Positions 4,602 to 22,675 of a stretch of 64,000 bases of DNA are shown here, one piece after another. The stretch is from a virus, in the IMG/VR virus record IMGVR_UViG_3300018481_000004, positions 1-64,000 of that record, one strand, 5' to 3'. The first letter of the stretch is position 1; every line of letters begins with the position of its first letter. Made by a program: the position numbers and the translations under genes. A model generated the notes under the pieces. That model saw nothing but the letters and a program-made list of their open reading frames with translations. It had not been told where the DNA came from and searched no databases.

Positions 4602-4607
4602 CGGCTA

Positions 4608-9229: not shown

Positions 9230-9496
9230 TCAATTGCAGAACGCGGTACCTGAGAACGCGCGCGAAAATTTCAGAGTGATCTGATTCTTCGAGTTGTGCC
9301 GAACGTCGCACCACATTTCGTCACCGCTCGTGTTGATCACGGTGATCGATGCGTATTTCCCAAGGTTGTGCTGAACGATCCATTGATTGCTTGGAGTCGA
9401 CTGCACGTGCTCGAAAGTCTTGTCTACGCCGTCTCCAGTTCCAGACGTCGCGCCTCGCGCAGCACCGGGCGAGATCCACAGGCCTGGGCTACTCAT
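9230..9496 (-). CDS. Small HNLG-module protein, paralog of the 4221..4601 C-terminus
   Basis: 88 aa: VQHNLGKYASITVINTSGDEMWCDVRHNSKNQITLKFSRAFSGTAFCN. It lies immediately upstream of the giant fibre gene on the same strand. Confidence 0.7.
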   Translation of the reverse strand: MSSPGLWISPGAARGATSGTGDGVDKTFEHVQSTPSNQWIVQHNLGKYASITVINTSGDEMWCDVRHNSKNQITLKFSRAFSGTAFCN

Positions 9497-9864
9497 ACAA
9501 ACACCATGCCCTCAGCGTCGAGCCAGAACCCTGACCCTTCTGGCGCTTGCGTGAAGTCCGCCAAAGTTGAGGAACACCCGAAGAACAGCTTCTCGAAGAC
9601 CCGACCGCTGTTCGCGGGCACCCATGTGAAGTGTGAGTTTGCCGGAACGGCAATGACGAAGGCCGGCACGAGCCCCGCTCTCGGTGCTTCCTCGAACAGC
9701 TGCAGATACAGGTCGATCGAGCTGCCGTTGAGACCCGTCAACACGTAGAGGACGCAACGTTCGCGGCGGATGCCCCCCGCGACTTTGAGACCCTTGCTCG
9801 TGTAGAGAAACGGGTTCGTCTTCGCCGTCGGTTGTCGAAGCCGGAAGCTTTCGAGCGACTCCAC
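9493..9864 (-). CDS. Hypothetical virion-module protein
   Basis: 123-aa ORF, start/stop-coupled to 9230..9496 (4-nt overlap), with ordinary composition. The competing 9512..10456 ORF is Arg-rich. Confidence 0.6.
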   Translation of the reverse strand: MESLESFRLRQPTAKTNPFLYTSKGLKVAGGIRRERCVLYVLTGLNGSSIDLYLQLFEEAPRAGLVPAFVIAVPANSHFTWVPANSGRVFEKLFFGCSSTLADFTQAPEGSGFWLDAEGMVFV

Positions 9865-9870
9865 GGGGCC

Positions 9871-10515
9871 TTATCTCCCCGTGCTGTGCGGCGAGTAAAT
9901 GAGAATCGCACACTCGTTCGCCATGTCGGAGCTCGTCATGGCGACGGTCACGTACTCGATTGGTGTGCCGTGAAAGTCGGCATTTTGAAGGCCGAACGGC
10001 CCTGCGTTCACGAGGCCCGCGTCCAGACTTTTGACGATGACCATGAGGTTGTCTGCGAAATAGGGGCTGGCACGAAGCTCTCGAGAGAAGTTTGTCAGGT
10101 CGATGTTCAGCGCGTTCGAACCGCTGCCGAGCTGCCCGTCGCTCTGCAGTTGGTCTAGCTTCGCACCGTTCCAACGCTGGCTTGCGCTCGAGGGTTGAAA
10201 GGTGAATCGAGACGCCGCGTCCAATGCACCGACGGGTCCCGGATCGTCCGCGTGCAGCAAGCCGAACCATGGGCCGTCGGCGTACTCGATCGACTCGATC
10301 GTGAAGAGCTTGCCGTTCAAAACCATCTTCTGGCCAGGTGCTGCGTCGTTGGTGTAGGTGGGCGGAGAGCCGCCGCCCTCGTAGACGAACTCGACGATCA
10401 CGATCGCAGTCGTGCTCTGTACGATCGGTCCTACGCCACAGGCGCCCGCGTAACACAGTGTTTGTGCGGACCCGTTCAGCAACGGCGGCTTGATGCTCGG
10501 CGCTGGTACGGCCAT
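9871..10515 (-). CDS. Hypothetical virion-module protein (beta-rich)
   Basis: 214-aa ORF with ATG at 10515, in series with the late operon. No recognisable motif. Confidence 0.65.
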   Translation of the reverse strand: MAVPAPSIKPPLLNGSAQTLCYAGACGVGPIVQSTTAIVIVEFVYEGGGSPPTYTNDAAPGQKMVLNGKLFTIESIEYADGPWFGLLHADDPGPVGALDAASRFTFQPSSASQRWNGAKLDQLQSDGQLGSGSNALNIDLTNFSRELRASPYFADNLMVIVKSLDAGLVNAGPFGLQNADFHGTPIEYVTVAMTSSDMANECAILIYSPHSTGR

Positions 10516-10542
10516 GCGGCTACCCCCCGGTGGCGGCCTCCG

Positions 10543-10590
10543 CTCAAAATGAGTAGGCCGCAGGGGGAAGGATACATCTGAAAATGAAAC
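10543..10590. promoter_or_regulatory. Pair of AAAATGA boxes with a CAGGGGGA element inside the late operon
   Basis: CTCAAAATGAGTAGG (10543-10557), CAGGGGGAAGG (10561-) and CTGAAAATGAAAC (10578-10590) sit in a 120-bp intergenic gap. The same box family occurs at 20437, 33821, 43917, 48836 and 54881. Confidence 0.35.
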
Positions 10591-10635
10591 GAGGCGGAGT
10601 AGAAAGCTCTGGGCGCGGGCGCAGTTTCAGAGGCC

Positions 10636-11196
10636 TCAGCGGCGCCGACGTCGCCGAGGAGCAAGGGGGCCAAGCCCTTCGACGCCAAAGCGGCGTTTGG
10701 CCTTGGACACGTAGCTCTGCGCGTGGGCGGAGACACTTCCGCGGTGCTGCCAGAGCAGGTAGCCAACCCCCGCCAGCGCGGCTGCGCCCCCGGCCCAGTA
10801 CAAGGGCGTGAGGTCGAACTCGACAGGGGGCACCTCGGTCTTGACCTTGACCTCGGCTCCGTGGGGCACATCCACGTTTCCGCCAGATGCGGGGCGTCCC
10901 GTCCAGCTCACGTACTTGGCCCGGTAGACGTTCAGCTGGTCCACGAACCCTTCGATGACCGAGACATTCCCACTGAACAGCCACGTCGTGATGCCGGCCG
11001 CGTTGTACCACTTGGCCCACTGGTCACGAAGCAAACGCCAAGCTTCGAGCTCGCCGGCAGGCAGCAGCTTGGCGTCCTTGGCGCGCGCCATGTCGTTGTT
11101 GAACGAAAGGAAGCCGGCGTGCGCGGTCTTCGCGAGTTCCTGGATGGCCGAAGGCGTCCAGAACAGCGGCTCGGTCATGTCGAGCATGTCGATCAT
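10636..11196 (-). CDS. Hypothetical protein with C-terminal membrane anchor and Arg tail
   Basis: 186 aa. Hydrophobic segment LYWAGGAAALAGVGYLLW near the C-terminus, which ends RRRRRR. Confidence 0.65.
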   Translation of the reverse strand: MIDMLDMTEPLFWTPSAIQELAKTAHAGFLSFNNDMARAKDAKLLPAGELEAWRLLRDQWAKWYNAAGITTWLFSGNVSVIEGFVDQLNVYRAKYVSWTGRPASGGNVDVPHGAEVKVKTEVPPVEFDLTPLYWAGGAAALAGVGYLLWQHRGSVSAHAQSYVSKAKRRFGVEGLGPLAPRRRRRR

Positions 11197-11570
11197 CGGA
11201 GGCTCTCCTTGAGCGTTGGAACTTCGGATGCGCGCCCGTCAACGACGTCGGCGCCGCTGTCTTGGAGCTCAGGAAAGCCGGGAGGCAGCCCGATCGGTTC
11301 GGAGTTGTGCCGCGTGATCGCGAACGTCACGACGAATGCGGCCAGGCTGCCGGGCCAAGGCGCGCCCAAGCCGACCCACACAAGCGACGCGATGACGGTC
11401 GACCAGAACGACATGCACAAGTCACACGCCCAGGGCTTGATACCTTGCTGTGTCCAACCGGCGAAGGGCGGCAGCGCGCGCACGATCGGCGGAATTGCAG
11501 CAGCCGACATGCCGATGAGTGCGGCAGTGGCGAGCAAGTGGAGTACGGCGCGCAAGTCCATCTCGATCAC
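11193..11570 (-). CDS. Small integral membrane protein (about 3 TM segments)
   Basis: 125 aa. Hydrophobic runs are LLATAALIGMSAAAIPPIV, FWSTVIASLVWVGLGAPW and LAAFVVTFAIT. It overlaps both neighbours by 4 nt. Confidence 0.65.
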   Translation of the reverse strand: MIEMDLRAVLHLLATAALIGMSAAAIPPIVRALPPFAGWTQQGIKPWACDLCMSFWSTVIASLVWVGLGAPWPGSLAAFVVTFAITRHNSEPIGLPPGFPELQDSGADVVDGRASEVPTLKESLR

Positions 11571-12073
11571 TCCAGGAAATCACCCGGTTCACATCCATGC
11601 CCGTCAACCATATCGGCTGATGCTTCTAGGTCATCACCAAAGTCAAGAAACTGCATCAACTTGTGAGGGTTTACTCTCTCCCACTCATCGTTACCCGAAC
11701 GATCGACAAGGATGGACCGCAATGCGCGCGCGAGTCTCATATCCCTTTGCTCCTCAGTCTCCGCTCGCTTCGCCGTTTTCCGCTTTCCGACTTTTGCCGG
11801 GTCCCCGAGCCCAGAGCCCCCAATGTCCGACTTGTTCTGCCCGCTGAGATCCATCATCCGCCGGCCGTAGGTGGCCATGTCCCTGACTTTTTTCACGAGC
11901 CTCGTGCGCGTCGGGGAAGGTGGCTCTTTCAAGAGAAACTTCAGCGCCGCCTTCAGCTCTTTCATGCCTTGGTCGAACAGACCGAAGTTGAACGAGCCAC
12001 GAGCGAAGCCCACTGCAGAGCTCACCAGTATGCTCGCGTTCTTGGCGTCGGCTGTGTCCCAGTCAATTTCCAT
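11567..12073 (-). CDS. Hypothetical protein
   Basis: The track ORF 11567..12598 has an Arg-rich front that overlaps 12088..12783. An in-frame ATG at 12073 gives MEIDWDTADAKNAS.. (168 aa) just after the upstream stop. Confidence 0.6.
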   Translation of the reverse strand: MEIDWDTADAKNASILVSSAVGFARGSFNFGLFDQGMKELKAALKFLLKEPPSPTRTRLVKKVRDMATYGRRMMDLSGQNKSDIGGSGLGDPAKVGKRKTAKRAETEEQRDMRLARALRSILVDRSGNDEWERVNPHKLMQFLDFGDDLEASADMVDGHGCEPGDFLE

Positions 12074-12087
12074 GGCCTTGTTCCCTC

Positions 12088-12783
12088 TCAGCGCCGGCTC
12101 TTGTCCCGAGTCAACGCATAAGCGGCCAGAGCGCCCGCAAGTCCGAGACCTGCCCACAGGCCGAGATTGAACTCTTCGATGCGCTGCACGGTCGCGAGGG
12201 TGTCCGCCGTCGACCACAGATTGAGCCCTGGCCGAAGCGCGCGATTGACCTCGGTGTGCAGTGGAAGCAGCGCCGGCCCGAGCGCCGCGAGTTTGGCTGC
12301 AGTCATCGACCCGTCGGACGGCTTCACGCGCAAGGTGTAGATCTGCGCCGTTTGTGGCAGCGTCACGTTGTCGGCCGGTGTCGGCGTGCCCGCCGCGTAC
12401 TTCTGGCCGACCTGGTACCCATTGAGTCGGGCAGGTCCGGTGCGAATGAGCGCCTCCCAGCCATCGGTGACAGACTCCCACTGAATCACGAGGGGTACGC
12501 TCGTGAGCGCGCTGTCGAGGACGCGGTAGCCCTTCTGCCGCAGACCCTCTGCAAAGGCAGCATCCAACGTCGCCTTGCTGAGCTTGTTCGGACCACACGT
12601 CATCTGCACATCGAGCAACACACCGCGATCAAGTCCCGCAGCCTGATCCGTCTCCACTACGCTCAGGCCTGAGCTGGCAAAAATCTCAGCGGCCTCGGTG
12701 ATATGGTGGACGACGCCCAGTCCAGAGAGCTGCACGCCACTGTGCGCAGTATCGTCGCCTCCGTACTTGATCTCCATCACCAT
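12088..12783 (-). CDS. Hypothetical protein with C-terminal membrane anchor
   Basis: 231 aa with C-terminal NLGLWAGLGLAGALAAYALTRDKSRR. Confidence 0.65.
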   Translation of the reverse strand: MVMEIKYGGDDTAHSGVQLSGLGVVHHITEAAEIFASSGLSVVETDQAAGLDRGVLLDVQMTCGPNKLSKATLDAAFAEGLRQKGYRVLDSALTSVPLVIQWESVTDGWEALIRTGPARLNGYQVGQKYAAGTPTPADNVTLPQTAQIYTLRVKPSDGSMTAAKLAALGPALLPLHTEVNRALRPGLNLWSTADTLATVQRIEEFNLGLWAGLGLAGALAAYALTRDKSRR

Positions 12784-12796
12784 GGGGCGCTCCGTT

Positions 12797-13024
12797 TCAG
12801 AAGGGCGTGCGGCCCACGCCCACGTCGGAGCACGGGCATTCGGCCGTAAAGGTCAGGATCGCGTTGTCGCCTTTGCGTAGGACCGCAATCCACTTGCCGA
12901 CTGGGCGAGAGAAGTACACGTGCGCCTTGTCGTTGCTCACGTCTCGATGGAGAACTGCTTGGTAACGGCGCAGGTACTCGTTGAGCTGCGCAATCGGCAC
13001 GGTCATCTTCTCGGCTTTGGCCAT
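12797..13024 (-). CDS. Small hypothetical protein
   Basis: ATG at 13024 is preceded by GGAGGAGGAAC (strong SD). 75 aa, MAKAEKMTVPIAQLNEYL... The upstream part of the track ORF is Arg/Ser-rich. Confidence 0.55.
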   Translation of the reverse strand: MAKAEKMTVPIAQLNEYLRRYQAVLHRDVSNDKAHVYFSRPVGKWIAVLRKGDNAILTFTAECPCSDVGVGRTPF

Positions 13025-13171
13025 GTTCCTCCTCCCCTCGTCAACAACGTGGGCGTCGCCTGATGCGCTTGCCTGGGCGCGTCGTGAAGCGTCGTCGCTC
13101 GGTCCGGTCGCGCGCGCGAGGAAGTAACTCCTGGCGCGCGTCCTTGCAGCTGATGAAGGCGGGCGCAATCA

Positions 13172-14272
13172 TCAGAACGGCAGCGGAGGCAAGCCCATCG
13201 CCATGGGGCCAAACTTCATGCCTACTTTGACAGCGGTTTTGAGCGTGGTCTTGAGACCCTTTCCGGCCAGTTTCACGCCCTTCTTCAGGTTCTGTTTGAG
13301 CTTGCGGCCGATCCTGCCCTCGAGCCCCGCGAGGTTGCCGTTCAGGCTGGCCAATCCCTCGAGGCCACTCAGCTGCGCGGTGGTGGTCGCATCACGCATC
13401 GCGACCAGGAACATCGCCTGCACTTGCTTCTTGTCCCAGCGTCCGCCCGCCATCACCTTGGTGCGGAACAGCCGCACCACAGCGAGGCGGCGCTGGATCT
13501 CGGCCTGCTTCGGGTTGCCGGTACGCTGTGCCGTGTCCCGGTCCCTCTCGAGCTTGCGTAACTCCGCATCGCCGCCGAGGCGCTCGTATTCCGCGAAGGT
13601 GGCGTTGTCGATGAAGTGCTTTCGAATCTCGTGGTTCTTCACTTGAGGGCCGCGTGGACCCACAGCGCCCAAACCGGAGACGCCGCACGAGGCGCAACCT
13701 CCCAGCCCTGCCAGACCTGCACTCGACGCAAGAAGCGGCGCGCCGGGGTAGAACGAAGAGCCCCCCATGAAGGTGCTTCCGCCTGATGGATCGATCAGTA
13801 GCTCGCGCGGGGAGCCGATCGGCGACATGCGCTGCGACTGAAACGCGTGCTTGGCGCCACCGTCCAGCGCTGCCATGTCGGCCGCGAGACCTGCACTCGA
13901 GGAGAGCAACGTCCCGCCGGGATAGTAGGAGGAGCCGCCGCCGTAGGTGCCTCCTTCGCTAGGATCGATCAGTGCGTGCTTGGGCATGGGATTCTCCGAA
14001 AAGGCTGCGAGGCCGGTGGTGAGAAGAGGAAGACCTGGCGTGTAGTTCGAACCGCCGCTGAAGAGTGCGCCACCCCCTGGAGCGACGACGCCGCGACGCT
14101 GCTCCGTGGGCAGGTCCACGACGTTCATGTAACGAAGGAACTCTCCCTCCGGCTCGACCAGGTACGCTTCCGCAGGGTTGGCCGAGACGATCGGTTGCCC
14201 CGCCCGCCTGGCCACAGGCGCCAAATCGAGCCCGTCGAGTACAGCGATTGGATCGCCCAACCCTCTACGCAT
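13172..14272 (-). CDS. Hypothetical Gly/Ser-rich protein with threefold internal repeat
   Basis: 366 aa. Three copies of LIDPS.GG(T/S)..GGSS.YPG..LL.SSAGLA, and a Lys-rich C-terminus. Confidence 0.65.
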   Translation of the reverse strand: MRRGLGDPIAVLDGLDLAPVARRAGQPIVSANPAEAYLVEPEGEFLRYMNVVDLPTEQRRGVVAPGGGALFSGGSNYTPGLPLLTTGLAAFSENPMPKHALIDPSEGGTYGGGSSYYPGGTLLSSSAGLAADMAALDGGAKHAFQSQRMSPIGSPRELLIDPSGGSTFMGGSSFYPGAPLLASSAGLAGLGGCASCGVSGLGAVGPRGPQVKNHEIRKHFIDNATFAEYERLGGDAELRKLERDRDTAQRTGNPKQAEIQRRLAVVRLFRTKVMAGGRWDKKQVQAMFLVAMRDATTTAQLSGLEGLASLNGNLAGLEGRIGRKLKQNLKKGVKLAGKGLKTTLKTAVKVGMKFGPMAMGLPPLPF

Positions 14273-15056
14273 AAAGCCTCCTGGTCAGACCCGCGACGCC
14301 CTGCGAGGGCTCCTTGGGTCGGAAATAGAAATACGCAGCGACAGCGCCGACGGCACCGACGCTGATCCACAACCAGACGTTGTCGTGGTCGAGACTTTCC
14401 TGACACGCGCTGATCGCGGCCTGTCGCGCCACATCGTTCGGCGCGCTGTACGCAGCCTCGAGACACGCCTGTAGCGCCTCGCCTGTCGCTTCGACGGTGT
14501 CGGCACTGCCGTTGACGGTCTCCGAAGCGAACTTGCCTGTCAGATAGGTCTGCACAATGGGGCCGGCTGCGGAGAGCACCGAGGAAATGCCCATCCACAC
14601 GACCGGGTTCTTCACCACCGCGTAGAGCGCGCGCCCGGCGGTGAGAAGCCAACCGAGCTCGTCAAGGCCAGCAAGTCCGCTGAGCACGGGACTTGCCGAC
14701 GGCTTCTGCAACGCCGCGACGATCGACTGCCAGGCGCTGACGGGGCTGAGCTCGCTCAGGCCCAATGCCGATGTGGCGAAGAGCGAGACCGTCGCTGCCG
14801 CGTCGATGGCCGCTTGCACGGCCGGAAAGCCCTTGATCGTTTCGACGATGATGTCGATGAGACGATTGAGCCCGCCGACCCAGGCATCAGCGCGGGCGCC
14901 GAGCTTGGTGACGTCGACGTCGCGCGCTTTCAGGTCGGTGACGATCTTCTCCATGCGCTGATAGCGGTCGACCTCTTTGGTCACGGTGTCGAGCAACCGC
15001 GTCCAAGGCGTCGCCGCGGTCGTAGCGGCTGCGAGCCCCGCGATCTCGACGGTCAT
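14265..15056 (-). CDS. Membrane protein (hypothetical)
   Basis: ATG at 15056 overlaps the upstream stop (ATGA) and gives MTVEIAGLAAATT... Hydrophobic segments are VVWMGISSVLSAAGPIV and WLWISVGAVGAVAAYFYF. Confidence 0.6.
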   Translation of the reverse strand: MTVEIAGLAAATTAATPWTRLLDTVTKEVDRYQRMEKIVTDLKARDVDVTKLGARADAWVGGLNRLIDIIVETIKGFPAVQAAIDAAATVSLFATSALGLSELSPVSAWQSIVAALQKPSASPVLSGLAGLDELGWLLTAGRALYAVVKNPVVWMGISSVLSAAGPIVQTYLTGKFASETVNGSADTVEATGEALQACLEAAYSAPNDVARQAAISACQESLDHDNVWLWISVGAVGAVAAYFYFRPKEPSQGVAGLTRRLYA

Positions 15057-17047
15057 GCCGCCCTCTGCTGCGTCGACCCTTGCGCGCGCTGCTGCATGAC
15101 GAGGTAGACCGCGAGCACGGCGGCACCCACGCAGCCGACGATCATCCAAGTGGGTGTGCCTTCGCTGCTGCTCTCCGTTGCTGTCGTCATCGCCGTCGAG
15201 TCAGCGGGGATCGCAGGTGCGTAATAGGCGGAGTTCGCAGGCGTCGACGTCGAAGGCACGAAGATGGCGCCTTGCCGCGGCGCCTCCTCCTGTTGTCCAG
15301 CGGTTGTTGCGTCGCCTGCCGGCTGCTCAGGAGCCTGCTGCTGCGGTTGCTGCGTGGGCGTAGCAGGTTCATCCTGCTGCTGCTGGGCCTGCTGCTTTTC
15401 TTCGCCCGCGGCGCCCTCGTCGTAGATCCGTGCCCCTACCGAGCTCGCATTCGCCATCGCAGGGGGCACACGCAGGTTCTGTCCTACAAGCAAGGTCGGG
15501 AGCGCGCGTTCGAACGCGGTGGTCTGGATTCCGGGCGCGTACTGCGCAATGGATGCGTAACCAGCTTGCGTCGCATCATCCCAGCTCCCGGTCACCTCGA
15601 CGCCGGCAAACTTTGACGGCGTCGCGCGGCGTGCCACGACCAGCATCTTCTGCACGGCCTGGACCGTGGTCGTCTGCGTGGCAAGCGCGATCATCTGTGC
15701 TGCGAGGCGGTCTTCGACGCTCGGCGCCGCGGGCTCCGTTCCGCCCCCTTCTTCGGCATCGCCGCCCGTGGGCAGCTGCGCTTCGCCTCCGGCCGCTTGC
15801 TGCGCACCCCCCGTGGTGATCGACGTCAGCCCCGGCATCCGCGCCGCTCTCGCGAGCGCGTCGTACGTGGCCGGCACGATCCACGCGGACGTGGGGCCAG
15901 CGCGATCAAAGGTGCCGTCGAGCTTCTTCGCCTTGGCTTTGGCCATCCACGCTGTGCGCGTCGCAGGTCCGAAGTTGCTGTCCCTCGTGAGCTTGACGCC
16001 GAGCTTCTTCAGGATGTCCTGCATGATGCCGACGCTCGCCTGCATCATGCCTTCCTTGGTGGCGTCGGTTGGCTTTGCAACCGCGGTCCCGGGCTTCGCT
16101 GCAGGCTTCGTGGAGCCCTTTGCCTTGCTCGCTTCTGCGTTCAAAGCCGCATAGGTCGCAGGATGGACCCACATCTCCGTCGGGCTCGCACGGTCGGCGC
16201 CCGTGTCTTGCCCGAGGCGCTTGGCGGCCTCAGCCCAGAGCTTGGCCGTCGTCGGTCCGTATTTCTTGTCGACGGTCAGCTTCGCGCCAAGCTTACGGAT
16301 CAGCTGCTGCGCGCTTTCGACGGTGATCTTGATGTACGCCTGGTTTGTCGCTGTGGTCGGCTTGGCTGCCGTCGCAGCGGATGCTTTGCCTTTCGCAGGC
16401 GCCTTGCCTTTCGCAGGCGCCTTGGCTTGCGCAGGCGCCGTGGTTGCACCGGCTGGCTTGAGCCGCGCCTCGAGCTCCTGCTTGCTCAGAATCAGCAGAC
16501 CCCACGCCGCCGCATCGACCACGGCGCTGTATTTGTCAGCGCCGCGCTCGATTTGCGGGCTCCTGCCTACGCGTGTGGCGAATGCCTGCCACACGGAGAC
16601 CGTCTTGGTTCCGTATGTCTTGTCGGCCTTGAGCTGCGCGCCGTGCTTGATCAGCTGCTTCTGCATGAACTCGACGTTCACGTGAAACTGACTGATCTCG
16701 ATCTTCTCGTCGTAGATCGCCGGGTGCTGCAGCGTGGGCCGCGTTTTGAGCGTAGTGTTGTACGGCGACAGCACCGCATTGGCTGCAGCAGGCGGGTTGC
16801 TCGCGACAGCCGGCGGCAACGCCTTCTTCTGCTGCGCGGTCGCAGTTGCCTTGGCCGGAGGCTTCACAGGTGGCTTGACCACGATGGGCTTCGCCGCGGC
16901 GGTCTTCTTGGCCGGGGTGGTCTTCTTGGCCGGGGTGGTCTTCTTGGCCGCGCCGAGCTCGCCGATCCCAAGCGCGAACTCGGCCAAGTAGGACGACAGG
17001 CCGCTCAAGTCCTGTTGCTGCTGCAGGTAGGGATCGTAGTAGTCCAT
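15053..17047 (-). CDS. Membrane-anchored protein with about 4 peptidoglycan-binding-like repeats
   Basis: 664 aa. Repeats resemble the PG_binding_1 pattern (V..Q..L..LG..L..D..(Y/F)G..T). Examples are VEFMQKQLIKHGAQLKADKTYGTKT, VESAQQLIRKLGAKLTVDKKYGPTT and VGIMQDILKKLGVKLTRDSNFGPAT. There are KKTTPAKKT low-complexity linkers and a C-terminal TM, WMIVGCVGAAVLAVYLV. Confidence 0.75.
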   Translation of the reverse strand: MDYYDPYLQQQQDLSGLSSYLAEFALGIGELGAAKKTTPAKKTTPAKKTAAAKPIVVKPPVKPPAKATATAQQKKALPPAVASNPPAAANAVLSPYNTTLKTRPTLQHPAIYDEKIEISQFHVNVEFMQKQLIKHGAQLKADKTYGTKTVSVWQAFATRVGRSPQIERGADKYSAVVDAAAWGLLILSKQELEARLKPAGATTAPAQAKAPAKGKAPAKGKASAATAAKPTTATNQAYIKITVESAQQLIRKLGAKLTVDKKYGPTTAKLWAEAAKRLGQDTGADRASPTEMWVHPATYAALNAEASKAKGSTKPAAKPGTAVAKPTDATKEGMMQASVGIMQDILKKLGVKLTRDSNFGPATRTAWMAKAKAKKLDGTFDRAGPTSAWIVPATYDALARAARMPGLTSITTGGAQQAAGGEAQLPTGGDAEEGGGTEPAAPSVEDRLAAQMIALATQTTTVQAVQKMLVVARRATPSKFAGVEVTGSWDDATQAGYASIAQYAPGIQTTAFERALPTLLVGQNLRVPPAMANASSVGARIYDEGAAGEEKQQAQQQQDEPATPTQQPQQQAPEQPAGDATTAGQQEEAPRQGAIFVPSTSTPANSAYYAPAIPADSTAMTTATESSSEGTPTWMIVGCVGAAVLAVYLVMQQRAQGSTQQRAA

Positions 17048-17057
17048 TCAAGACCTC

Positions 17058-17495: not shown

Positions 17496-17497
17496 GA

Positions 17498-18055
17498 TCA
17501 GCCGCCCTGTTGGGCTGTCGCCGACACGAGGTCGCCAATCAGCTGAATGCCCACTTCGCGGCTTGCGCCCACGAGCGGTCCCCAGCGGCTTGTGTCGACA
17601 GCCCACGTCACATCGAACGACGTGCCGGGCACGCAGATGTACGCGCCGTCCCACTCTGCGACGTTTCCCGCGCCGGAGAGCGAGATAAGCGAGGCGAACG
17701 AGACGTTGCGCTTGAAGACAGAGAACGAACGCCCCTGCTCCACGAGGTTGAAGTCGATCAACGCCGGAGCGTTGCCGAGCGAGCCCGGGTTCATCGCGAA
17801 GCCCGCGATTTTCCGGATCACGAAGTTGTAGTTGCTGACGATCTGCACCGGCGGCGTCTGAAACGTGATCGAACCTGACGGGTCGACACGGCAGCGAAAC
17901 TGCAAGCTCTCGATGCGCGCCTTTTCGGGGAACAGATACCCCGACGCCAGGTCTGAGTAGTAACCGAGCAGCGGCCCGACCACCTTCGCGCCCTGCGGCG
18001 TGCTCGCATTCGCCACGGCGGGCATGTCGCCCAAGTATCCGCGATTACCAGCCAT
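17498..18055 (-). CDS. Small beta-rich virion protein (capsid-component candidate)
   Basis: 185 aa, MAGNRGYLGDMPAV..NFVIRKIAGFAMNPG..IDFNLVEQGRSFSVFKRNVSFASL..EWDGAYICVPGTSFDVTW. No known motif. The pattern suggests alternating beta-strands. Confidence 0.7.
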   Translation of the reverse strand: MAGNRGYLGDMPAVANASTPQGAKVVGPLLGYYSDLASGYLFPEKARIESLQFRCRVDPSGSITFQTPPVQIVSNYNFVIRKIAGFAMNPGSLGNAPALIDFNLVEQGRSFSVFKRNVSFASLISLSGAGNVAEWDGAYICVPGTSFDVTWAVDTSRWGPLVGASREVGIQLIGDLVSATAQQGG

Positions 18056-18171
18056 AGTCCTTGTTCTCCCCTTGTGGCGATGCGCCAGCTTCTTCGGCGC
18101 CTCGACCCACGGTTAGGTCAAGGCGCCGAAGAAGCCGTCGAGCAGACATGAGTGTCTGCTCGACCGTCAGA

Positions 18172-18834
18172 TCACTTGGTGACGGCGGCCCGAACGAGGC
18201 CGTGAAGAAATGCCGTGATCGCGAGCGGATTGGTGATCTTGGGCTGTGAGACCACTGGTCCAGCAGTTCCAAGCGTCGTCACGCCGGTCGTCCAGGTGCG
18301 TGCGTCGAAGCGGATGGTGCCATCGAGCTCATGGTTCTGGTTCAGCATCTGCTTCTTGACGAGCCGACTCGCAGAAGCTGTGGCGGGGACGCCGATGGAC
18401 ACGATGCCGGAGTCGGTCTCCGTGGTCTGACCGTACAATCCGTAGCCCGAGGGGAACTTAATGATCGGACCTTCGTCCTGCATGATGTCGTTGATCTTGA
18501 GGCGAAAATATCCGTTTTCTACGACCTTTTTGATGTCTTTCGGCAGCGCGAGGATGTCGCCCAGCGCCAACCTGACACTCAGACCGATTCGATCGAGCAC
18601 CATGCTTTCGCCCGACGAGAGCTTGCGCTGCGTCTTGAAGTTCGTGTCGAGATCGCGCTTTCCCTGGATGTCGGAAAAGAAGACGAACTCGCTACCAGCC
18701 ACCAGGTTCTCGCCTGCGGGGATGATGACGGTGTCGAATTTATCTGACTCGCGAAAATCGCGAATGTTGACGATCTGTCCACTATCAGAGTCACGGAACA
18801 GACCTGGCTGTCCTTCGACGGGTGCGAGTGCCAT
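18172..18834 (-). CDS. Beta-rich virion protein (major structural protein candidate)
   Basis: 220 aa. SD GAGGAGA lies before the ATG at 18834, after a 165-bp gap. Sequence includes FVFFSDIQGKRDLDTNFKTQRKLSSGESMVLDRIGLSV. Confidence 0.75.
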   Translation of the reverse strand: MALAPVEGQPGLFRDSDSGQIVNIRDFRESDKFDTVIIPAGENLVAGSEFVFFSDIQGKRDLDTNFKTQRKLSSGESMVLDRIGLSVRLALGDILALPKDIKKVVENGYFRLKINDIMQDEGPIIKFPSGYGLYGQTTETDSGIVSIGVPATASASRLVKKQMLNQNHELDGTIRFDARTWTTGVTTLGTAGPVVSQPKITNPLAITAFLHGLVRAAVTK

Positions 18835-18999
18835 GGGATGTCTCCTCGAAAACGTGGGTGGTGTGCATGTCAGCCTTTCTTTTTCTTTCTGCCTTCGGTT
18901 TTGCTCGCCACGGACGCGCTCAAAGAGCTCGCCTAGACTTGCGTGACAGGTTCTGATTTAAAGTGCTGTTCCTGTCAGCAACACACGCATCGCCTACGA

Positions 19000-19563
19000 T
19001 CAGGCGAGGTACGGCATGTACGAGCCGAGCTGCTCGTTGGACACGTTCACGCCCGCGAGCGCAGGCATGGGTCCGAGGTTGCGGAACGCCGGATCACTCT
19101 GCTCGACCGCGGCCTCGGCCAGACCATTGATGGTCTGGTAGTCGTAGTCGGACAAGAGGCCGTCGCCTTCGTCGGCCTCGCCGAGCGGCACGCCGAGCGG
19201 GTTGGCGGTGAAGAAGGTGCCGATGAAGTTGGCGACGCCGAGGCCGATCAGGCCGCCCGCCACGCCCGCTGCCGCATCACGATTGATGTGGTAGAGCCCG
19301 CGCCCGCCCGCGATGCCTGCAACGACCGCAAAGCCGCTGAGCAGACGCGCCCGGTTCACCGGTTCGAGGGTCTTGAAGAACGGGGTCTCGGACTTCTGGA
19401 TCCACCCTGAGATCTTCTGCGTGATGATCGTGCCGAGAAGGATGGCAGCGGCACCACTGGCGCCGCTGATCCCGAACTCCTTGAGCATCTCGAGGTTGAT
19501 GATCTCGTCGAACTCCCCGAACTCGTAGCCCATCATGTCGTCGTAATCCTTGAGCGCTCCCAT
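19000..19563 (-). CDS. Gly-rich membrane protein (hypothetical)
   Basis: ATG at 19563 is preceded by GGAGGAACCG. 187 aa with hydrophobic Gly-rich segments AAAILLGTIITQKI, FAVVAGIAGG and VAGGLIGLGVANFIGTFF. Confidence 0.65.
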   Translation of the reverse strand: MGALKDYDDMMGYEFGEFDEIINLEMLKEFGISGASGAAAILLGTIITQKISGWIQKSETPFFKTLEPVNRARLLSGFAVVAGIAGGRGLYHINRDAAAGVAGGLIGLGVANFIGTFFTANPLGVPLGEADEGDGLLSDYDYQTINGLAEAAVEQSDPAFRNLGPMPALAGVNVSNEQLGSYMPYLA

Positions 19564-19711
19564 CGGTTCCTCCTTCGCTTTCCCCGCTGATTCGCCGTGG
19601 GGGCGCGAGGTTTTGGCTACGGTGCGCATCGATCACCAATGAATGGACTTGCGCCGCAACCGAAAATCAATATGAGATCAGCCTACAGTTGGACTAAAAC
19701 AGCGTCAAACT

Positions 19712-20437
19712 CTACATGACGCTGAAGATCCACGACTTCTCGACCATTGCGGCGGGTGCCTCCCAACCGAACTTGACGTCGACGGAGCTGTCCATCGTGA
19801 TCCACTTCTGTGGTGCGGCGCGTGGAAAGCCAGCCTGCGGGTAAATGTGATTCGGCTCCCGCGAGCCCTTGGTCTGAATGACCTTCATGCGCGCGGGGAT
19901 GCCGATGGTCAGGAGCAGCGCGCAGGTGGTCGCGGTGTAGTCGTCGCAGTCCCCAGACTGCAGCCCGATCGTCAGGCGCGGGTTCTGGAACGTGTCGACG
20001 CCGAGCGTGTCGCTCGTGTAGCGTACATGCGAGCGCATGTAGTCGAAGATGGCCTTTGCTTCAGCCAAGTTGTCCTTCTCGGGGACGCACCATCGATCGC
20101 CGCAGCGGCGCGAGACGATCTGCCGCGCCAAGGCGTAGATCTTCGGATCGCTGCGGCCCTTGTCGACGCGGCCTTTGATGTACGCGACGCGCTCGTTGAG
20201 CGTTCGAACGCTGGCCTTTTTCATCTGGCTGATGAGCGTGGCGGTCGGCGGGAGTGGCGCGGCCCCTTGCACAGGCAGCGGCAAACTCTCGCCGATCCCG
20301 CTGGGCGGCCCGCGCCGTCGAGGCGCAGGCCGGGGTTTGGGCGCATCGGTGCCTGCGAGGGCGCCGACGCCGCTACTCAACGCCTGCGCGCCGAGGATCA
20401 CCGACGCCAGGCCCACGACCACTTTGCCGAAGCTCAT
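19712..20437 (-). CDS. Transglutaminase-like cysteine peptidase with N-terminal signal/anchor
   Basis: GDCDDYTATTCALLLTIGIPARMKV..NHIYPQ..WITMDSS fits the Cys-His-Asp transglutaminase-core pattern. The N-terminus is MSFGKVVVGLASVILGAQALS. Confidence 0.75.
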   Translation of the reverse strand: MSFGKVVVGLASVILGAQALSSGVGALAGTDAPKPRPAPRRRGPPSGIGESLPLPVQGAAPLPPTATLISQMKKASVRTLNERVAYIKGRVDKGRSDPKIYALARQIVSRRCGDRWCVPEKDNLAEAKAIFDYMRSHVRYTSDTLGVDTFQNPRLTIGLQSGDCDDYTATTCALLLTIGIPARMKVIQTKGSREPNHIYPQAGFPRAAPQKWITMDSSVDVKFGWEAPAAMVEKSWIFSVM

Positions 20438-20472
20438 GAAAATGAATCGTAGGCGCCGCTCTCAAAATGAAC
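20437..20472. promoter_or_regulatory. Pair of AAAATGA boxes in a late-operon intergenic gap
   Basis: TGAAAATGAAT (20437-20447) and CTCAAAATGAAC (20461-20472) lie between 19712..20437 and 20498..22675. Confidence 0.35.
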
Positions 20473-20497
20473 AAGCTTGGGCGCCGTCGACGCAGTT

Positions 20498-22675
20498 TCA
20501 GTTGCTCGCGGCGGCGTGGTCCTCGTCCTGGCTGTCCCCGTCGTCGGACTCGTCATCCTCCTCGTCGCCCTCGTCATCCTCCTCCTCTTCGTCGTCTTCC
20601 GCGTGCTCATCGTGCGCATCGAGGGCGGCTTGGACGGGGTTGGAATCGTCGCCGAGCGGGACGCCTTGCAATGCGCTCTGGATCACGTCGAAGTTCTTAT
20701 CGAAGGTTGTGACGATCTTCTCGACCATCTCAGGACTGAGGAATCCGCTGACTTGCAGCCCCTGCATGATCACGGTGAGAATCTCAAGCGCCCTGTCGGC
20801 GCGCCCCCTCTGGACGAGTCCGAGCAACGTCTCGGTGGTCTCGCGCCATTCGTCGAACTCTGCGAAGTAAATCAGCATGTTCGTCACGCGTTGGAGGAGC
20901 TCCCCGTCATCTGCCGCGGCGACGATCTTGTTGATGTGCTCGTAGGTGGCGCTTGGCAGAGGCGGCAAACGTCTCGCCGGCCGCGCGCTGGGTCGCTCGC
21001 TCGGTTTCGCGGTGACCGTGTCGGTCTCCTCGACCACGTGCTTGTGGACCACTTCGCCGAACCCCTGGGGCGGCGGCGCAGCGGGGTTCGTGACAGGCGC
21101 GACGGCGATGGGTCGCACGACGCGGGGCTGCGGAACCGCTTGCACGGTCTGGGCCTGGGCTGGCGCCCCCTGCACCGGCTGCCCGGCGGGTGCTGCAACG
21201 ATGGGTGGTTGTCCCTTGCGCAGTTCCAGGATCATTGCCTTCTGATCAGCCATCAGCTTTCGCCGCTGCTCGATCAGTTGCGCTTGCGTCGAGGTTTCGG
21301 CCTTCTGCCGAACCAGTTGGGCAACCGCGCCACCGACATCACGGTTGCCTAGAAAATTTCCGAAAGCCTCCCAGAAGCCTCCCGAGGACCCTTGCTGATC
21401 TCCCTTAAGTTGCTGCGCGACGTTCAACATCATGCTCATGTGCTCCATGCTCTTCCTGAAGTCGTCGCCTCCTTTTTCGCCCTTGATATCCTGCAGCAGC
21501 GTGAGCATGTCGCGCGGCGTCAGAGTCTGCGCGTCCTTCGACGCGATCAGCTGCTTCACCAAATCCTTGGTCTCGCCGTCGCCATCACCTTTGCCTTTGC
21601 CCATGACGGTCGCCACGACCTCGACGATCTCCTTGAGACCCTCGAAAGGCGAAGGCGGCGGCGGAAGCGGCGGAGGCAGAGGCGCAGAGCTGCTCGACTT
21701 GTCATCGAGCAGCTTGGCGAGCATCCGCTTGAGCTCCAGATCTTCGCGCGGCTTCATGGCCTCGACAAGCAGCTGGAGGTTCTGCTGATTCTGCTGGCTT
21801 TGCAGTTGCTGCTGCTGGGCCATCATCTGCATGAATCCCTGCATCTGTTGACCCTGTGCAGCGATCACTGCCGCCAGCGTTCCATCTTCTCTGGGCGCCA
21901 TTTCCTTTTGAACCTCCTGCATGCCTCGAAGCAGCCCGATCGGATCGACATTTCCCTGCTGCACACGTGACTCCCACAGCTCGCGCTGCGCGCGCTGCGA
22001 CTGTTCAAAGACCGACTGCAGCATGTTCATGGTGCCGGTCCCTTCCGGTTCCGGGTTGGGGTCGAGCACGTTGACGGTGCCAGCTTCCAACTCGTTACCC
22101 GCGGCGTCGATGCCGGTGATTTTGTATTCGCCGGCCCCATATTTTGGCTTGATGTACTTCAGGATGAAGCTTTCGAGATCACTCGACGCCGACAGGTCTT
22201 GGAAGGAATACTCTCCGACCAGACCGAGCGCGCCGTTCACCATGCGCTGCTTGATCTTGACCTTCTCTGCACCAGGAAGCTTTTTGGCCAGTGCCTGTCC
22301 GAGGCGCTTCACCGCGGGTGATGCCTCGGGCTTGATCTTCCGGACCCGGTTTTGCGGCACCTGAAAGACCGTGTCGTCTTCCTGTGGCACCGGCGCGCGT
22401 GGTTCAGGCTGCTGCTGCATGTACCCAAACTGCGCGACCGGCGGCGGCTTCACCTCCGCCGACCGCTCGAACAAGGTATCGCGCAGGGGGGAGCGCCTCG
22501 TAGGAGCAGGGGCCGGCGAAGGTGCAGGTTCCCCCGCTTCTTCCTCGCTATCTACGAGTGCCTCGAACGCTTCGCGCGCGGCGTCGCCGTCGGTTTCTCC
22601 GTCGTCGTCGAGGCCCATGCCGAGCTCGCGCATCTTGTCGTCGACGTTCGCTTCGTTGGTCGTCTTTCTCGCCAC
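20498..22675 (-). CDS. Large Gln-rich coiled-coil protein with acidic C-terminal tail (scaffold- or internal-protein-like)
   Basis: 725 aa. GTG start with GAGGAG SD. Contains QQQQLQSQQNQQNLQ and PPPLPPPPSP tracts and a C-terminal EDDEEEEDDEGDEEDDESDDGD. No NTPase motif seen. Confidence 0.75.
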   Translation of the reverse strand: MARKTTNEANVDDKMRELGMGLDDDGETDGDAAREAFEALVDSEEEAGEPAPSPAPAPTRRSPLRDTLFERSAEVKPPPVAQFGYMQQQPEPRAPVPQEDDTVFQVPQNRVRKIKPEASPAVKRLGQALAKKLPGAEKVKIKQRMVNGALGLVGEYSFQDLSASSDLESFILKYIKPKYGAGEYKITGIDAAGNELEAGTVNVLDPNPEPEGTGTMNMLQSVFEQSQRAQRELWESRVQQGNVDPIGLLRGMQEVQKEMAPREDGTLAAVIAAQGQQMQGFMQMMAQQQQLQSQQNQQNLQLLVEAMKPREDLELKRMLAKLLDDKSSSSAPLPPPLPPPPSPFEGLKEIVEVVATVMGKGKGDGDGETKDLVKQLIASKDAQTLTPRDMLTLLQDIKGEKGGDDFRKSMEHMSMMLNVAQQLKGDQQGSSGGFWEAFGNFLGNRDVGGAVAQLVRQKAETSTQAQLIEQRRKLMADQKAMILELRKGQPPIVAAPAGQPVQGAPAQAQTVQAVPQPRVVRPIAVAPVTNPAAPPPQGFGEVVHKHVVEETDTVTAKPSERPSARPARRLPPLPSATYEHINKIVAAADDGELLQRVTNMLIYFAEFDEWRETTETLLGLVQRGRADRALEILTVIMQGLQVSGFLSPEMVEKIVTTFDKNFDVIQSALQGVPLGDDSNPVQAALDAHDEHAEDDEEEEDDEGDEEDDESDDGDSQDEDHAAASN

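Follow-up and report, generated by a model that had tools for sequence, protein, structure and literature searches.

Two described viruses bear most directly on the locus analysed here. According to reviews, SSIP-1 is a T=49 phage that has an internal membrane and two types of major capsid protein (MCP), and in SPV1 (Sulfolobus polyhedral virus 1, of the Portogloboviridae) single jelly-roll (SJR) proteins, VP4 in the hexamers and VP10 in the pentons, lie over an inner membrane. The locus is a gene block at positions 9493-22675 (minus strand) of the window, that is, of the whole stretch of 64,000 nucleotides that was analysed (positions 1 to 64,000 of the IMG/VR record IMGVR_UViG_3300018481_000004). 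We assign a probability of roughly 0.6 to the reading that this block is the virion module of a large, tailless, internal-membrane bacterial virus resembling SSIP-1 and SPV1, on the computed evidence of gene content, gene order, predicted folds and the best matches to them, homology of a transglutaminase (TGase)-like protein and lack of head-tail genes in the part of the genome seen. An earlier note, made from the sequence letters, had proposed a non-tailed, internal-membrane morphogenesis module of PRD1 or sphaerolipovirus type; the first part is supported by two predicted jelly-roll proteins, the TGase-like homology with SSIP-1 gp34 and the missing head-tail genes, but the comparison with PRD1 and sphaerolipoviruses fails, as there is neither a double jelly-roll (DJR) MCP nor an FtsK/HerA-type packaging ATPase beside the capsid genes.

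In the block, about 17 co-oriented ORFs with a strong GC3 coding signal follow one another without a break (Table 1), and they coincide with genes called independently on the source contig. The layout is that of the earlier note, about 13 kb upstream of fibre genes, the latter being identified by gene calls and by YadA_stalk repeats (Pfam) in the 1536-aa and 372-aa fibre proteins. The label of late genes is suggested by content and orientation. Several products named in the note were likewise recovered: the TGase-like protein, the four peptidoglycan (PG)-binding repeats (readable directly in the translation) and the 725-aa Gln-rich protein, which is very acidic. The tyrosine recombinase gene at the head of the co-oriented block is probably not part of the virion; its homologues (35-41% identical) lie directly upstream of the 725-aa homologue in four relatives (L002, L003, L007 and L010), and in L011 a recombinase homologue was found nearby, with no 725-aa homologue detected.

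Table 1. Features of the block and of its borders (TM, transmembrane; coordinates are those of the window)
Coordinates	Strand	Feature	Basis	Relatives examined
501..9218	-	Fibre genes, 1536, 126, 372, 435 and 427 aa, more beyond the window	Gene calls; downstream of the block	
9230..10515	-	Three lineage-specific proteins, 214, 123 and 88 aa	Gene calls; between conserved core and fibres; no Pfam or PHROGs family match	No homologues
10636..11196	-	186-aa protein, marginal C-terminal hydrophobic stretch, Arg-rich tail	Kyte-Doolittle only 1.11	None found by BLAST
11193..11561	-	122-aa integral membrane protein, two or more TM segments	Kyte-Doolittle scan	Homologues in five
11567..12073	-	168-aa soluble protein	Gene call; no Pfam family match	
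12088..12783	-	231-aa protein, weak Gly/Ala-rich C-terminal hydrophobic segment	Kyte-Doolittle 1.53, residue 207	None found by BLAST
12797..13024	-	75-aa conserved small protein	Source-contig gene call	Homologues in five
13172..14272	-	366-aa protein, internal Gly/Ser/Tyr repeats, Lys-rich C-terminus	Read from the translation	Homologues 31-34% identical in five
14265..15056	-	263-aa tail-anchored protein, C-terminal TM	Kyte-Doolittle 1.68, residues 227-245	None found by BLAST
15053..17047	-	664-aa protein, four PG-binding-like repeats, C-terminal TM 633-651	PG_binding_1 6e-7, PG_binding_3 2e-6	Homologues of 945-1203 aa
17058..17480	-	140-aa conserved small protein after the two jelly-roll genes	No Pfam, PHROGs or NCBIfam match	Same-position homologues in L002, L003, L007, L012
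17498..18055	-	185-aa second predicted jelly-roll capsid protein	AF2 and Foldseek	Always adjoins the 220-aa gene
18172..18834	-	220-aa candidate major capsid protein, predicted single jelly-roll	AF2, Foldseek and conservation	Best-conserved late protein
19000..19563	-	187-aa Gly-rich membrane protein, two TM segments	Kyte-Doolittle scan	Homologues with conserved hydrophobic segments in six, just upstream of the 220-aa gene
19712..20437	-	241-aa transglutaminase-like protein, Cys-His-Asp core	Pfam PF01841, 3.7e-10; TM residues 2-20	
20498..22675	-	725-aa Gln-rich, strongly acidic protein	119 D+E vs 76 K+R	Homologues of 29-44% identity
22679..23599	-	306-aa tyrosine recombinase, XerC/D-like	Pfam Phage_integrase 5.6e-20, SAM-like N domain	See text

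Among the late proteins, the 220-aa candidate MCP stands out by its conservation (51-73% identity, vs 28-59% for its neighbours). It has 294 homologues, 120 of which are listed at 65% identity or more, and belongs to a large, uncultured family of 239 clusters at 50% identity; some of the contigs concerned are 73-109 kb long, including MAG-binned ones labelled with five bacterial groups. Its AF2 model (pLDDT 64) is an all-beta sandwich whose top PDB match in Foldseek is SPV1 6oj0_Z (E 5e-3), followed by coat proteins of ssRNA and ssDNA viruses. In BFVD the model matches I1ZBH9 (211 aa) and I1ZBI0 (256 aa), both with probability 0.99, and these are, to judge only by their lengths and consecutive accessions, apparently gp46 and gp47 of SSIP-1. 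When a diverse profile of the family was aligned with 34 SSIP-1 proteins using hhalign, gp46 came out best (P 0.0055). The fold matches of this protein are statistically weak, with pLDDT 64, a TM-score of about 0.3 and none below E 1e-3.

For the 185-aa protein, the AF2 model (pLDDT 79, pTM 0.70) consists of an N-terminal helix and an eight-strand sandwich, and its top PDB match is SPV1 6oj0_A (E 1.9e-4, probability 1.0, TM 0.48), so that the two models find different chains of one virus. Further matches are 6oj0_Z, the SH1 capsid protein 6qt9_h, IBDV VP2 and TNF-like trimers, a frequent feature of receptor-binding proteins. This protein is a candidate penton protein or second MCP. For neither jelly-roll protein was sequence-level homology to a known capsid protein found. 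Both of these adjacent small proteins are missing from the earlier note. The 140-aa protein may be a minor capsid protein.

The TGase-like protein is the link with SSIP-1 at the sequence level: it matches the structural protein gp34 (blastp 2e-9), and members of its family do so with phmmer values down to 5e-14. Directly upstream of its gene lies that of the 725-aa protein, an order that mirrors the Gln-rich ORF33 followed by gp34 in SSIP-1. This long protein has no match in Pfam, PHROG, NCBIfam, PDB or the phage database, and may act as an assembly, scaffold or size-determining factor. The 664-aa protein, proposed here as a cell-wall-engaging membrane protein, matches endolysin-type PHROGs and, weakly, the NCBIfam model of a holin-associated muramidase.

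Membrane anchors were searched for using a Kyte-Doolittle scan (19-residue window, threshold 1.6). Seven membrane-anchored products had been listed in the earlier note; five are supported (N-terminal in the TGase-like protein, C-terminal in the 664-aa and 263-aa proteins, two segments each in the 187-aa and 122-aa proteins), and the 231-aa and 186-aa proteins are marginal. The block is modestly enriched in TM-bearing ORFs over the rest of the window, with 5 of 15 vs 6 of 49 (one-sided Fisher p = 0.07; p = 0.03 without two likely false positives, RCC1 and PolA; p = 0.008 with the two marginal anchors counted). The anchors of the PG-binding protein (at its C-terminus), of the two-TM Gly-rich protein and of the 122-aa protein are kept in relatives.

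Profile searches with Pfam, PHROGs and NCBIfam gave no terminase, portal, HK97 capsid, tape-measure, tube or sheath protein in the block, in agreement with the earlier note. Pfam finds only the PG_binding_1/3 and Transglut_core domains; PHROGs finds only the endolysin-type PG-binding matches and a marginal one of phrog_473 ('virion structural protein') to the first 24 residues of the 220-aa protein (E 0.0016); and NCBIfam nothing relevant to the head or tail. Over the whole window, no terminase, portal, HK97 MCP, protease, tape-measure, tube, sheath or baseplate family was found, nor any head-tail family in 16 kb of flanks (precomputed Pfam lists, and PHROGs on the flank proteins). The only canonical Walker A motif in a coding frame of the window is that of a RecD-like helicase at 37310. 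A search for packaging ATPases gave none, of whatever type, either in the vicinity of the capsid genes or in the rest of the sequence seen.

The genome, which the note had put above 64 kb, assembles as a circle of ~101.8 kb. The note had called for a search of its remainder: in the 79% seen (all but 21.6 kb, record positions 41,222-62,844, ENA ERZ27251452 k141_2125684), no head-tail genes were found, terminase, portal and HK97 MCP included, and no FtsK/HerA-type packaging ATPase either. A circular relative of 82.6 kb (IMGVR_UViG_3300017963_000029) has no head-tail genes in the 78% seen (17.9 kb being outside view). Gene order is conserved across the family, and by this order the segment unseen in either genome corresponds to one seen in the other.

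It is thus unlikely that the head genes simply lie outside the window, as the note had allowed. The same holds for the wider explanation that this is an ordinary, very divergent tailed phage (Caudoviricetes), whose terminase, portal and HK97 capsid genes fall in the 21.6 kb outside view or have diverged beyond the reach of profile HMMs, and with tail-tip, baseplate, ejection and fibre parts in the block, the jelly rolls being decoration or receptor-binding proteins. With 21% of the genome outside view, such genes would have room, and a 149-aa protein near the unseen region has a weak PHROG 'virion structural protein' match; however, the unseen segment is about the size of the excess over the relative (19.2 kb), which suggests accessory genes, and the relative's region past the late block, fully read, has no ORF above 280 aa except a helicase and a GP88-like protein. 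TNF-like and decoration jelly rolls do occur in tailed phages (7eel_H, a head decoration protein among the matches of the 220-aa model, 9k09_A and 8ke9_A), as do PG-binding or lysozyme-like domains and long fibres in tail modules, yet 27 kb of co-oriented late genes hold no tube, sheath, tape-measure, baseplate or connector family, and the most conserved late gene encodes the 220-aa jelly roll and not a typical head or tail protein. The replication module (PolA, VapE and helicases) is of tailed-phage type and is found also in a genuine myovirus-like genome, the 48.5-kb metagenomic MW202816.1, in which distant homologues of the Cas4-like exonuclease, SNF2 helicase and PolA genes stand in the same order and the layout is likewise two-arm and convergent. 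The opposite arm of MW202816.1 carries TerL, a probable portal, protease, HK97-type MCP, tail and baseplate genes with no counterpart here, and its TerL, portal, MCP and protease have no tblastn match in any locus examined. With one arm shared and the virion arm unmatched, the block occupies the arm in which this type of replicon has its virion module.

A jelly-roll capsid devoid of internal lipid, in which the TM proteins would be non-structural (holin- or spanin-like lysis, superinfection exclusion or assembly-site proteins), is rather improbable. The modest TM enrichment, the two marginal anchors and the weak endolysin and muramidase matches of the PG-binding protein would fit it, as would PG-hydrolase genes outside the block (M15 peptidases, SLT-like lysozyme); against it, the best structural comparators (SPV1, SSIP-1 and SH1) are membrane-containing icosahedral viruses, at least five TM proteins are interleaved with the capsid genes, several of them position-conserved across relatives, and the SSIP-1 homologue of the TGase-like protein is a virion protein. 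We consider it very improbable that the block serves a large plasmid-like element for transfer or as part of the cell envelope, in spite of the membrane-anchored and PG-binding proteins, YadA-like adhesin stalks, tyrosine recombinase, circular replicon and the binning of contigs into MAGs from several phyla. No relaxase, coupling protein or ATPase for secretion or conjugation was found, 72,556 plasmids gave no match, the relatives are IMG/VR entries, the folds resemble those of viral coat proteins, and the genome carries lysis and anti-defence genes along with its phage-type replication genes.

On the preferred reading, in which a tailless icosahedral dsDNA bacterial virus has its core virion-morphogenesis operon here, the capsid roles, the lipid and the mode of DNA packaging are inferred. 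The shell would be built of small SJR proteins around a protein-studded lipid vesicle, the 220-aa protein forming hexameric capsomers and the 185-aa protein pentons or a second capsomer subunit, with the 140-aa protein as a minor component and the 725-aa protein taking part in assembly or in determining size. The inner membrane would bear the N-anchored TGase-like protein, the two-TM Gly-rich protein, the tail-anchored protein with four PG-binding repeats and other TM proteins, which at entry could bind or cut the cell wall and provide a conduit for DNA. The lineage-specific proteins, possibly vertex or fibre adaptors, and the YadA-like fibres would make up the vertex and host-recognition apparatus.

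Such a virus would share with PRD1-type Tectiviridae and other DJR-MCP phages a tailless icosahedral virion, an inner membrane with proteins for DNA delivery and for hydrolysis or binding of PG, and spikes at the vertices, but these phages have a single DJR MCP of ~400 aa, a P9-type ATPase and genomes below 20 kb, and the block has neither a DJR-sized gene nor an ATPase gene. Helvetiavirae (Sphaerolipoviridae, Simuloviridae and Matshushitaviridae: SH1, HHIV-2, P23-77) encode small vertical-SJR MCPs in two neighbouring genes, possess an internal membrane and have a structural operon with many small membrane proteins, and an SH1 protein is among the matches of the 185-aa model; no P23-77 capsid protein is among the best 50. 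Their genomes of 17-31 kb differ, however, as does their hallmark FtsK/HerA-type ATPase beside the MCP genes, absent from the ~101.8-kb genome as seen and from all relatives examined. SPV1, besides giving the top PDB match of both jelly-roll proteins, has two separate SJR capsid proteins and no recognisable packaging ATPase, but it infects a hyperthermophilic archaeon and has a 20-kb genome, no polymerase genes and a nucleoprotein coil core, and the structural alignments have 7-11% identity and TM-scores of only 0.30-0.49. With SSIP-1 the likeness extends from the TGase-like protein and its Gln-rich neighbour to the adjacent small structural proteins gp46 and gp47 (about 200-250 aa), the co-oriented structural genes, among which lie those for predicted membrane proteins and for a spike or fibre protein of very large size, and a circular genome. 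Sequence similarity is limited to the TGase-like protein, the virion P-loop protein gp40 of SSIP-1 (Walker A GEKGSGKS) has no homologue here, and the replication module differs. The genome is 2.3 times larger than that of SSIP-1 (44 kb) and, if our preferred reading is true, would exceed more than twofold the largest of any tailless membrane-containing phage in the literature compared, namely SSIP-1 itself.

The window has a G+C content of 62% and comprises two arms, a minus-strand arm running from about 23.6 kb to position 1 and a mainly plus-strand arm that starts at 23.4 kb and extends to the right end. A block of about 17 minus-strand ORFs, which have a strong GC3 coding signal and match independent gene calls on the source contig, occupies the upstream half of the minus arm; fibre genes with YadA_stalk repeats make up the downstream half. 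Genes of replication and auxiliary function lie on the plus arm, namely those for a Dam methylase, a GT2 glycosyltransferase, an M15 peptidase, an RCC1-repeat protein, a VapE-type primase, a RecD-like helicase, a Cas4-like exonuclease, an SNF2 helicase, tRNA-Trp, ThyX, PAS/HTH regulators, a second recombinase, an HNH endonuclease and PolA. The late operon is headed by a XerC/D-like tyrosine recombinase gene, also found directly upstream of the 725-aa gene in four related loci (L002, L003, L007 and L010; 35-41% identity across relatives); an integrase would not be expected at this position, which may hint that the enzyme acts in genome resolution. Proteins of the Acb2/Tad1-hairpin type (anti-CBASS/Thoeris sponge family) and of the AcrVA2-like type, both detected by precomputed Pfam matches, suggest anti-defence genes.

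Features of the window and its flanks (window coordinates unless a locus of the source contig is named)
Feature	Position	Strand	Size	Remark
Fibre genes	501-9218	minus		
Four consecutive fibre genes	501-4211 and L020 7574-12539		372, 435, 427, 415 aa	follow a 1536-aa fibre
Block	9493-22675	minus		
PG-binding protein	15053-17047	minus		Pfam PG_binding
Second predicted jelly roll	17498-18055	minus	185 aa	
Candidate major capsid protein	18172-18834	minus	220 aa	
2-TM protein	19000-19563	minus		
Transglutaminase (TGase)-like protein	19712-20437	minus		Pfam Transglut_core
Gln-rich protein	20498-22675	minus	725 aa	
XerC/D-like recombinase	22679-23599			
RCC1/tectonin-like beta-propeller repeat protein	30691-31770		359 aa	among early genes
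Contig end overlap	31599-31721		123 bp	window sequence continuous here
Order shared with MW202816.1	39995-54873			
Acb2/Tad1-hairpin protein	44495-44734		79 aa	
tRNA-Trp (CCA)	45037-45114		78 nt	ARAGORN; Rfam tRNA model silent at gathering threshold
Second, longer recombinase-like gene	50158-51729			
AcrVA2-like protein	58175-59257		360 aa	
Ro60/TROVE + vWA protein	L005 16007-17770		587 aa	~2.0-3.8 kb beyond right end
Two extremely basic proteins	L020 17629-18365		131, 51 aa	~5.8-6.6 kb beyond left end

An earlier note had described the block as devoid of head and tail genes, rich in membrane anchors and similar to PRD1- or sphaerolipovirus-type virions. The missing head-tail genes were confirmed by Pfam, PHROGs, NCBIfam and a Walker A scan. 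The two Pfam families listed in the table were the sole matches in the block; PHROGs gave endolysin-type PG-binding matches and one marginal match, in which the N-terminus of the 220-aa protein aligned with a family termed "virion structural protein", and NCBIfam gave no relevant match. In the 64-kb window, a canonical Walker A motif in a coding frame was detected only in the RecD-like helicase. No Walker A/P-loop protein that could be an FtsK/HerA-type packaging ATPase was found in the block, beside the genes resembling those of major capsid proteins (MCP), and in eight relatives no P-loop ATPase was found up to 10 kb away from the MCP-like gene. No double-jelly-roll (DJR) MCP was matched either, and the specific likeness to PRD1- or sphaerolipovirus-type virions is not borne out. 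A 254-aa protein beside the capsid genes of the related locus L011 was rejected as an ATPase, its Walker-A-like motif not being kept in the 77%-identical L010 homologue and no Pfam match being found; a 558-aa protein at 39995, considered as a terminase, is a Cas4-like exonuclease instead. A megablast search of 50,697 phage genomes with the block gave no match, nor did tblastn searches of phages with the 220-aa or 725-aa protein and of plasmids with the 220-aa protein, and phmmer/hmmsearch of the 220-, 185-, 725- and 558-aa proteins against PDB sequences gave spurious matches only.

The source genome is a circular assembly of ~101.8 kb (ENA ERZ27251452:k141_2125684, 101,912 bp). The coordinate maps of its loci L001 and L004/L005 differ by 101,789, which implies the 123-bp contig end overlap. 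Using window proteins as anchors, flanks were covered for 9.5 kb past the left end and 6.7 kb past the right end, so that 80.2 of 101.8 kb (79%) were covered, all but record positions 41,222-62,844 (21.6 kb). In the left flank, further fibre paralogues close the late arm and are followed by small genes, among them those for an SLT-like lysozyme, for an M15 peptidase and for small proteins of very basic character; the right flank holds small genes, a virus-encoded Ro60/TROVE protein, an SNF2-type helicase and a methyltransferase-like protein. Neither precomputed Pfam lists nor PHROGs revealed head or tail families in the two flanks. Rfam at gathering threshold gave no match in the window or flanks, Y-RNA-like families included. 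The 51-aa basic protein has a duplicated K-T-x-A-G-R-R-C-A-K-F motif, and both basic proteins could be DNA-condensing, which would be relevant to packaging without an ATPase.

A second circular genome, IMGVR_UViG_3300017963_000029 (82.56 kb in total, with a homologue of the 220-aa protein at 63% identity), was covered at positions 1-21,917 and 39,797-82,687 (78%). Its end overlap of 123 bp has the same length as that of the source contig. Its late arm encodes, in order, the recombinase, a 716-aa protein, the TGase-like protein, a TM protein, proteins of 220, 186 and 142 aa, a 1104-aa PG-binding protein, then proteins of 344, 67, 247, 118, 142 and 90 aa, and ends without any head-tail gene. The set of four similarly sized fibre genes does not follow this arm and has no BLAST match in the covered part of the relative, which suggests a lineage-specific expansion of host-recognition genes. 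The 43 kb past the late arm, read without gap, hold small genes and genes for a 1094-aa helicase, a GP88-like P-loop protein, a dCMP deaminase, an HD protein, an M23 peptidase, an endolysin, a DNA methyltransferase-exonuclease fusion and the end of PolA (Pfam, PHROGs). No homology exists between the GP88-like protein (409 aa) and the 360-aa protein that has a similar place in the window.

The two partly covered genomes are complementary, assuming that core genes keep their places. The uncovered 17.9 kb of the relative are bounded by PolA and by the homologue of window gene 24746, an interval fully visible in the window and made purely of replication and auxiliary genes; the uncovered 21.6 kb of the source genome match the fully read stretch past the relative's late arm, and their length is close to the difference in genome size (19.2 kb). 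No terminase was matched by Pfam or PHROGs in the window, the flanks or the circular relative (79% of the source genome covered). Over the same sequence, neither a portal nor an HK97-fold MCP was found, no late ORF of suitable size matching either; structure prediction was applied to selected proteins. No tail family (tube, tape measure, sheath or baseplate) was detected by Pfam or PHROGs across the whole 27-kb co-oriented late arm, composed of the window together with L001/L020, which carries fibres with YadA_stalk repeats instead.

Two adjacent genes of the block, overlooked in the earlier note, encode small all-beta proteins of single-barrel size. The 220-aa protein has 294 homologues (identity at least 65% among the 120 matches listed), some of them on contigs of ~74-109 kb, and a profile search of the whole library placed its family in 239 clusters at 50% identity. 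Across eight related loci no other late protein is conserved as well, its identity being 51-73% versus 28-59% for its neighbours. Its AlphaFold2 model, of moderate confidence (pLDDT 64, pTM 0.59), is a beta sandwich with one helix. The top PDB match was chain 6oj0_Z of Sulfolobus polyhedral virus 1 (SPV1; E 5e-3, probability 0.85, TM 0.30), followed mainly by single-jelly-roll (SJR) coat proteins of circo-, picorna-, luteo-, tymo- and bromoviruses, none individually significant; as to DJR proteins, the PBCV-1 MCP appeared only at rank 42 (TM 0.26). In BFVD the model matched I1ZBH9 (211 aa, rank 2) and I1ZBI0 (256 aa), both with probability 0.99, which we infer from length and consecutive accessions to be gp46 and gp47, neighbouring structural proteins of SSIP-1 (the Salisaeta icosahedral phage 1). 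The model of the 185-aa protein is better (pLDDT 79, pTM 0.70), with an N-terminal helix followed by an eight-strand sandwich. Its top PDB match was SPV1 chain 6oj0_A (E 1.9e-4, probability 1.0, TM 0.48 over 177 columns), and further matches included 6oj0_Z, SH1 6qt9_h and birnavirus VP2; TNF-family trimers score as well. Both predicted jelly rolls have viral coat proteins as best matches, at moderate model confidence; hhalign of one family against the other gave nothing significant. Three distant members of the 220-aa family (P0236, P0242 and P0255) have a 60-120-aa extension before the conserved N-terminal arm, with a twin-arginine-like motif (RRxFLRG, then a hydrophobic stretch), and appear truncated after ~55 residues of similarity; they may form a subfamily with membrane or Tat targeting, or may stem from faulty gene calls.

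The description of the block as membrane-rich holds for the anchors themselves, five of the seven being clear and two marginal in a Kyte-Doolittle scan and several being conserved in relatives, but compared with the remaining window the enrichment is modest and statistically soft (Fisher p 0.07; 0.03 and 0.008 when counted in two other ways). The TM or tail-anchored proteins interleaved with the candidate capsid genes, five to seven in number, may point indirectly to a putative lipid bilayer under the shell.

Related loci were found on 73-96-kb contigs in MAGs labelled Gemmatimonadota, Fimbriimonadaceae, Acidimicrobiia, Actinomycetota and Anaerolineae, and two more in IMG/VR. The conserved core order is recombinase, 725-aa and TGase-like proteins, 2-TM protein, 220-, 185- and 140-aa proteins, PG-binding protein, 366-aa and 75-aa proteins and a 122-aa TM protein. 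More distant relatives have the first three of these genes inverted or lack them at that position; the jelly-roll gene pair stays together. In MW202816.1, a 48.5-kb circular myovirus-like genome, the genes for the Cas4-like exonuclease, SNF2 helicase and PolA are ordered as in the window, whereas its opposite arm encodes TerL, a probable portal, a Mu-I-like protease, an MCP and tail and baseplate proteins. None of its structural proteins, TerL included, had a tblastn match in any locus of this virus family. Given the shared arm and the unmatched structural arm, the block sits where an MW202816.1-type replicon keeps its virion module, with different content, which looks like a module exchange between virus realms.

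In our main reading, with a probability of about 0.6, the block encodes the virion core of a large tailless icosahedral virus of SSIP-1/SPV1-like type, which bears fibres and has virion proteins anchored in a membrane. By fold, conservation, position and analogy, the 220-aa protein would be the hexon-type MCP and the 185-aa protein the penton or a second MCP, the TM proteins would act in the inner membrane and in entry, and the 725-aa protein would be an assembly factor. The probability was not set higher because the fold statistics of the 220-aa protein are weak, a TNF-like alternative exists for the 185-aa protein, a packaging enzyme is completely absent from the covered sequence with a fifth of the genome outside it, and the lipid membrane is a prediction from sequence. 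As the main rival, which we consider unlikely, the virus would be a tailed phage of great divergence, with head genes that escape detection or lie in the uncovered segment: the replication genes shared with a myovirus-like genome would suit it, and it has to be set against a late arm without tail families and a relative complementary in coverage. A jelly-roll virus without membrane would agree with the soft TM enrichment and is opposed by the conserved anchors among the candidate capsid genes; it is judged improbable. That the contig is a non-viral element, as the MAG bins of several phyla might allow, is very improbable beside the coat-protein matches.

A broader reading is put forward tentatively, as possible rather than probable: a widespread uncultured lineage of family rank or higher, comprising 73-110-kb bacterial viruses with SPV1/SSIP-1-like SJR shells over an internal membrane, which would package a ~100-kb genome without terminase or FtsK/HerA ATPase, bridge Portogloboviridae and Helvetiavirae in bacteria, and exchange their replication module with tailed phages. 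Those of its contigs that fall in MAG bins have been assigned to Gemmatimonadota, Actinomycetota, Chloroflexota and Armatimonadota. If this is true, ~100 kb would be, to our knowledge, the largest genome of a tailless prokaryotic virus. The family, with its PolA-based replicon and anti-defence genes, would extend the architecture far past the known bacterial range and provide the first relatives of SSIP-1; the relatedness and DNA packaging of SJR-capsid viruses (Portogloboviridae, Helvetiavirae) would become testable, no packaging ATPase being visible here. In the literature covered, no such group was found to have been described. A blind spot of virome annotation is also indicated, two IMG/VR relatives having no tailed-phage marker gene and six others lying in MAG bins labelled bacteria.

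The virion architecture itself is of a known kind; novelty would lie in how large the genome is, in the fact that no packaging ATPase can be recognised, in the pairing with a tailed-phage-type replicon and in how broad the family is. Phages of the DJR-MCP kind, Tectiviridae included, have a double-jelly-roll MCP, whereas the candidates here are of 185 and 220 aa with no DJR match. Helvetiavirae have an FtsK/HerA-type ATPase beside their MCP genes, unlike the block and the 10-kb surroundings in eight relatives; their two vertical SJR MCPs may have a parallel in the two adjacent predicted jelly-roll proteins, modelled with moderate confidence. DJR phages have genomes of < 20 kb and Helvetiavirae of 17-31 kb (PMC6356626, PMC6260650, PMC8812541). 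SPV1 has a T=43 shell of the SJR hexamer protein VP4 and the SJR penton protein VP10 with an inner membrane beneath (PMC8459092), and is without packaging ATPase (PMC8812541). It provides the top PDB match of both small proteins, with no sequence homology, and, having a VP1 nucleoprotein core, differs (Portogloboviridae) by its archaeal host and its ~20-kb genome; the genome studied here has 101.8 kb and probably a bacterial host, since PG-binding and M15 peptidase genes are present and the MAG bins are also bacterial.

SSIP-1 is an internal-membrane phage with a 43.8-kb circular genome and a T=49 capsid, said to encode two MCP types (PMC6356626, PMC4958249, PMC6260650); at 44 kb it is the largest tailless membrane-containing prokaryotic virus in the reviews cited, unclassified and with no relatives described (PMC6356626, PMC6260650, PMC8812541). 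Its virion P-loop protein gp40 (ATPase), gp43 and gp57 are without counterpart in the covered 79% of this genome. In hhalign, a diverse profile of the 220-aa family ranked gp46 best among 34 SSIP-1 proteins (P 0.0055, not significant after correction), and the 185-aa, 140-aa and 2-TM families gave nothing significant; gp46 and gp47, if correctly identified, match the 220-aa model only at the fold level. By sequence, gp34 alone is homologous to a window protein: this virion protein matches the TGase-like protein (blastp 2e-9; phmmer down to 5e-14 with family members), and its gene directly follows the Gln-rich ORF33, as the TGase-like gene of the window follows that of the Gln-rich 725-aa protein.
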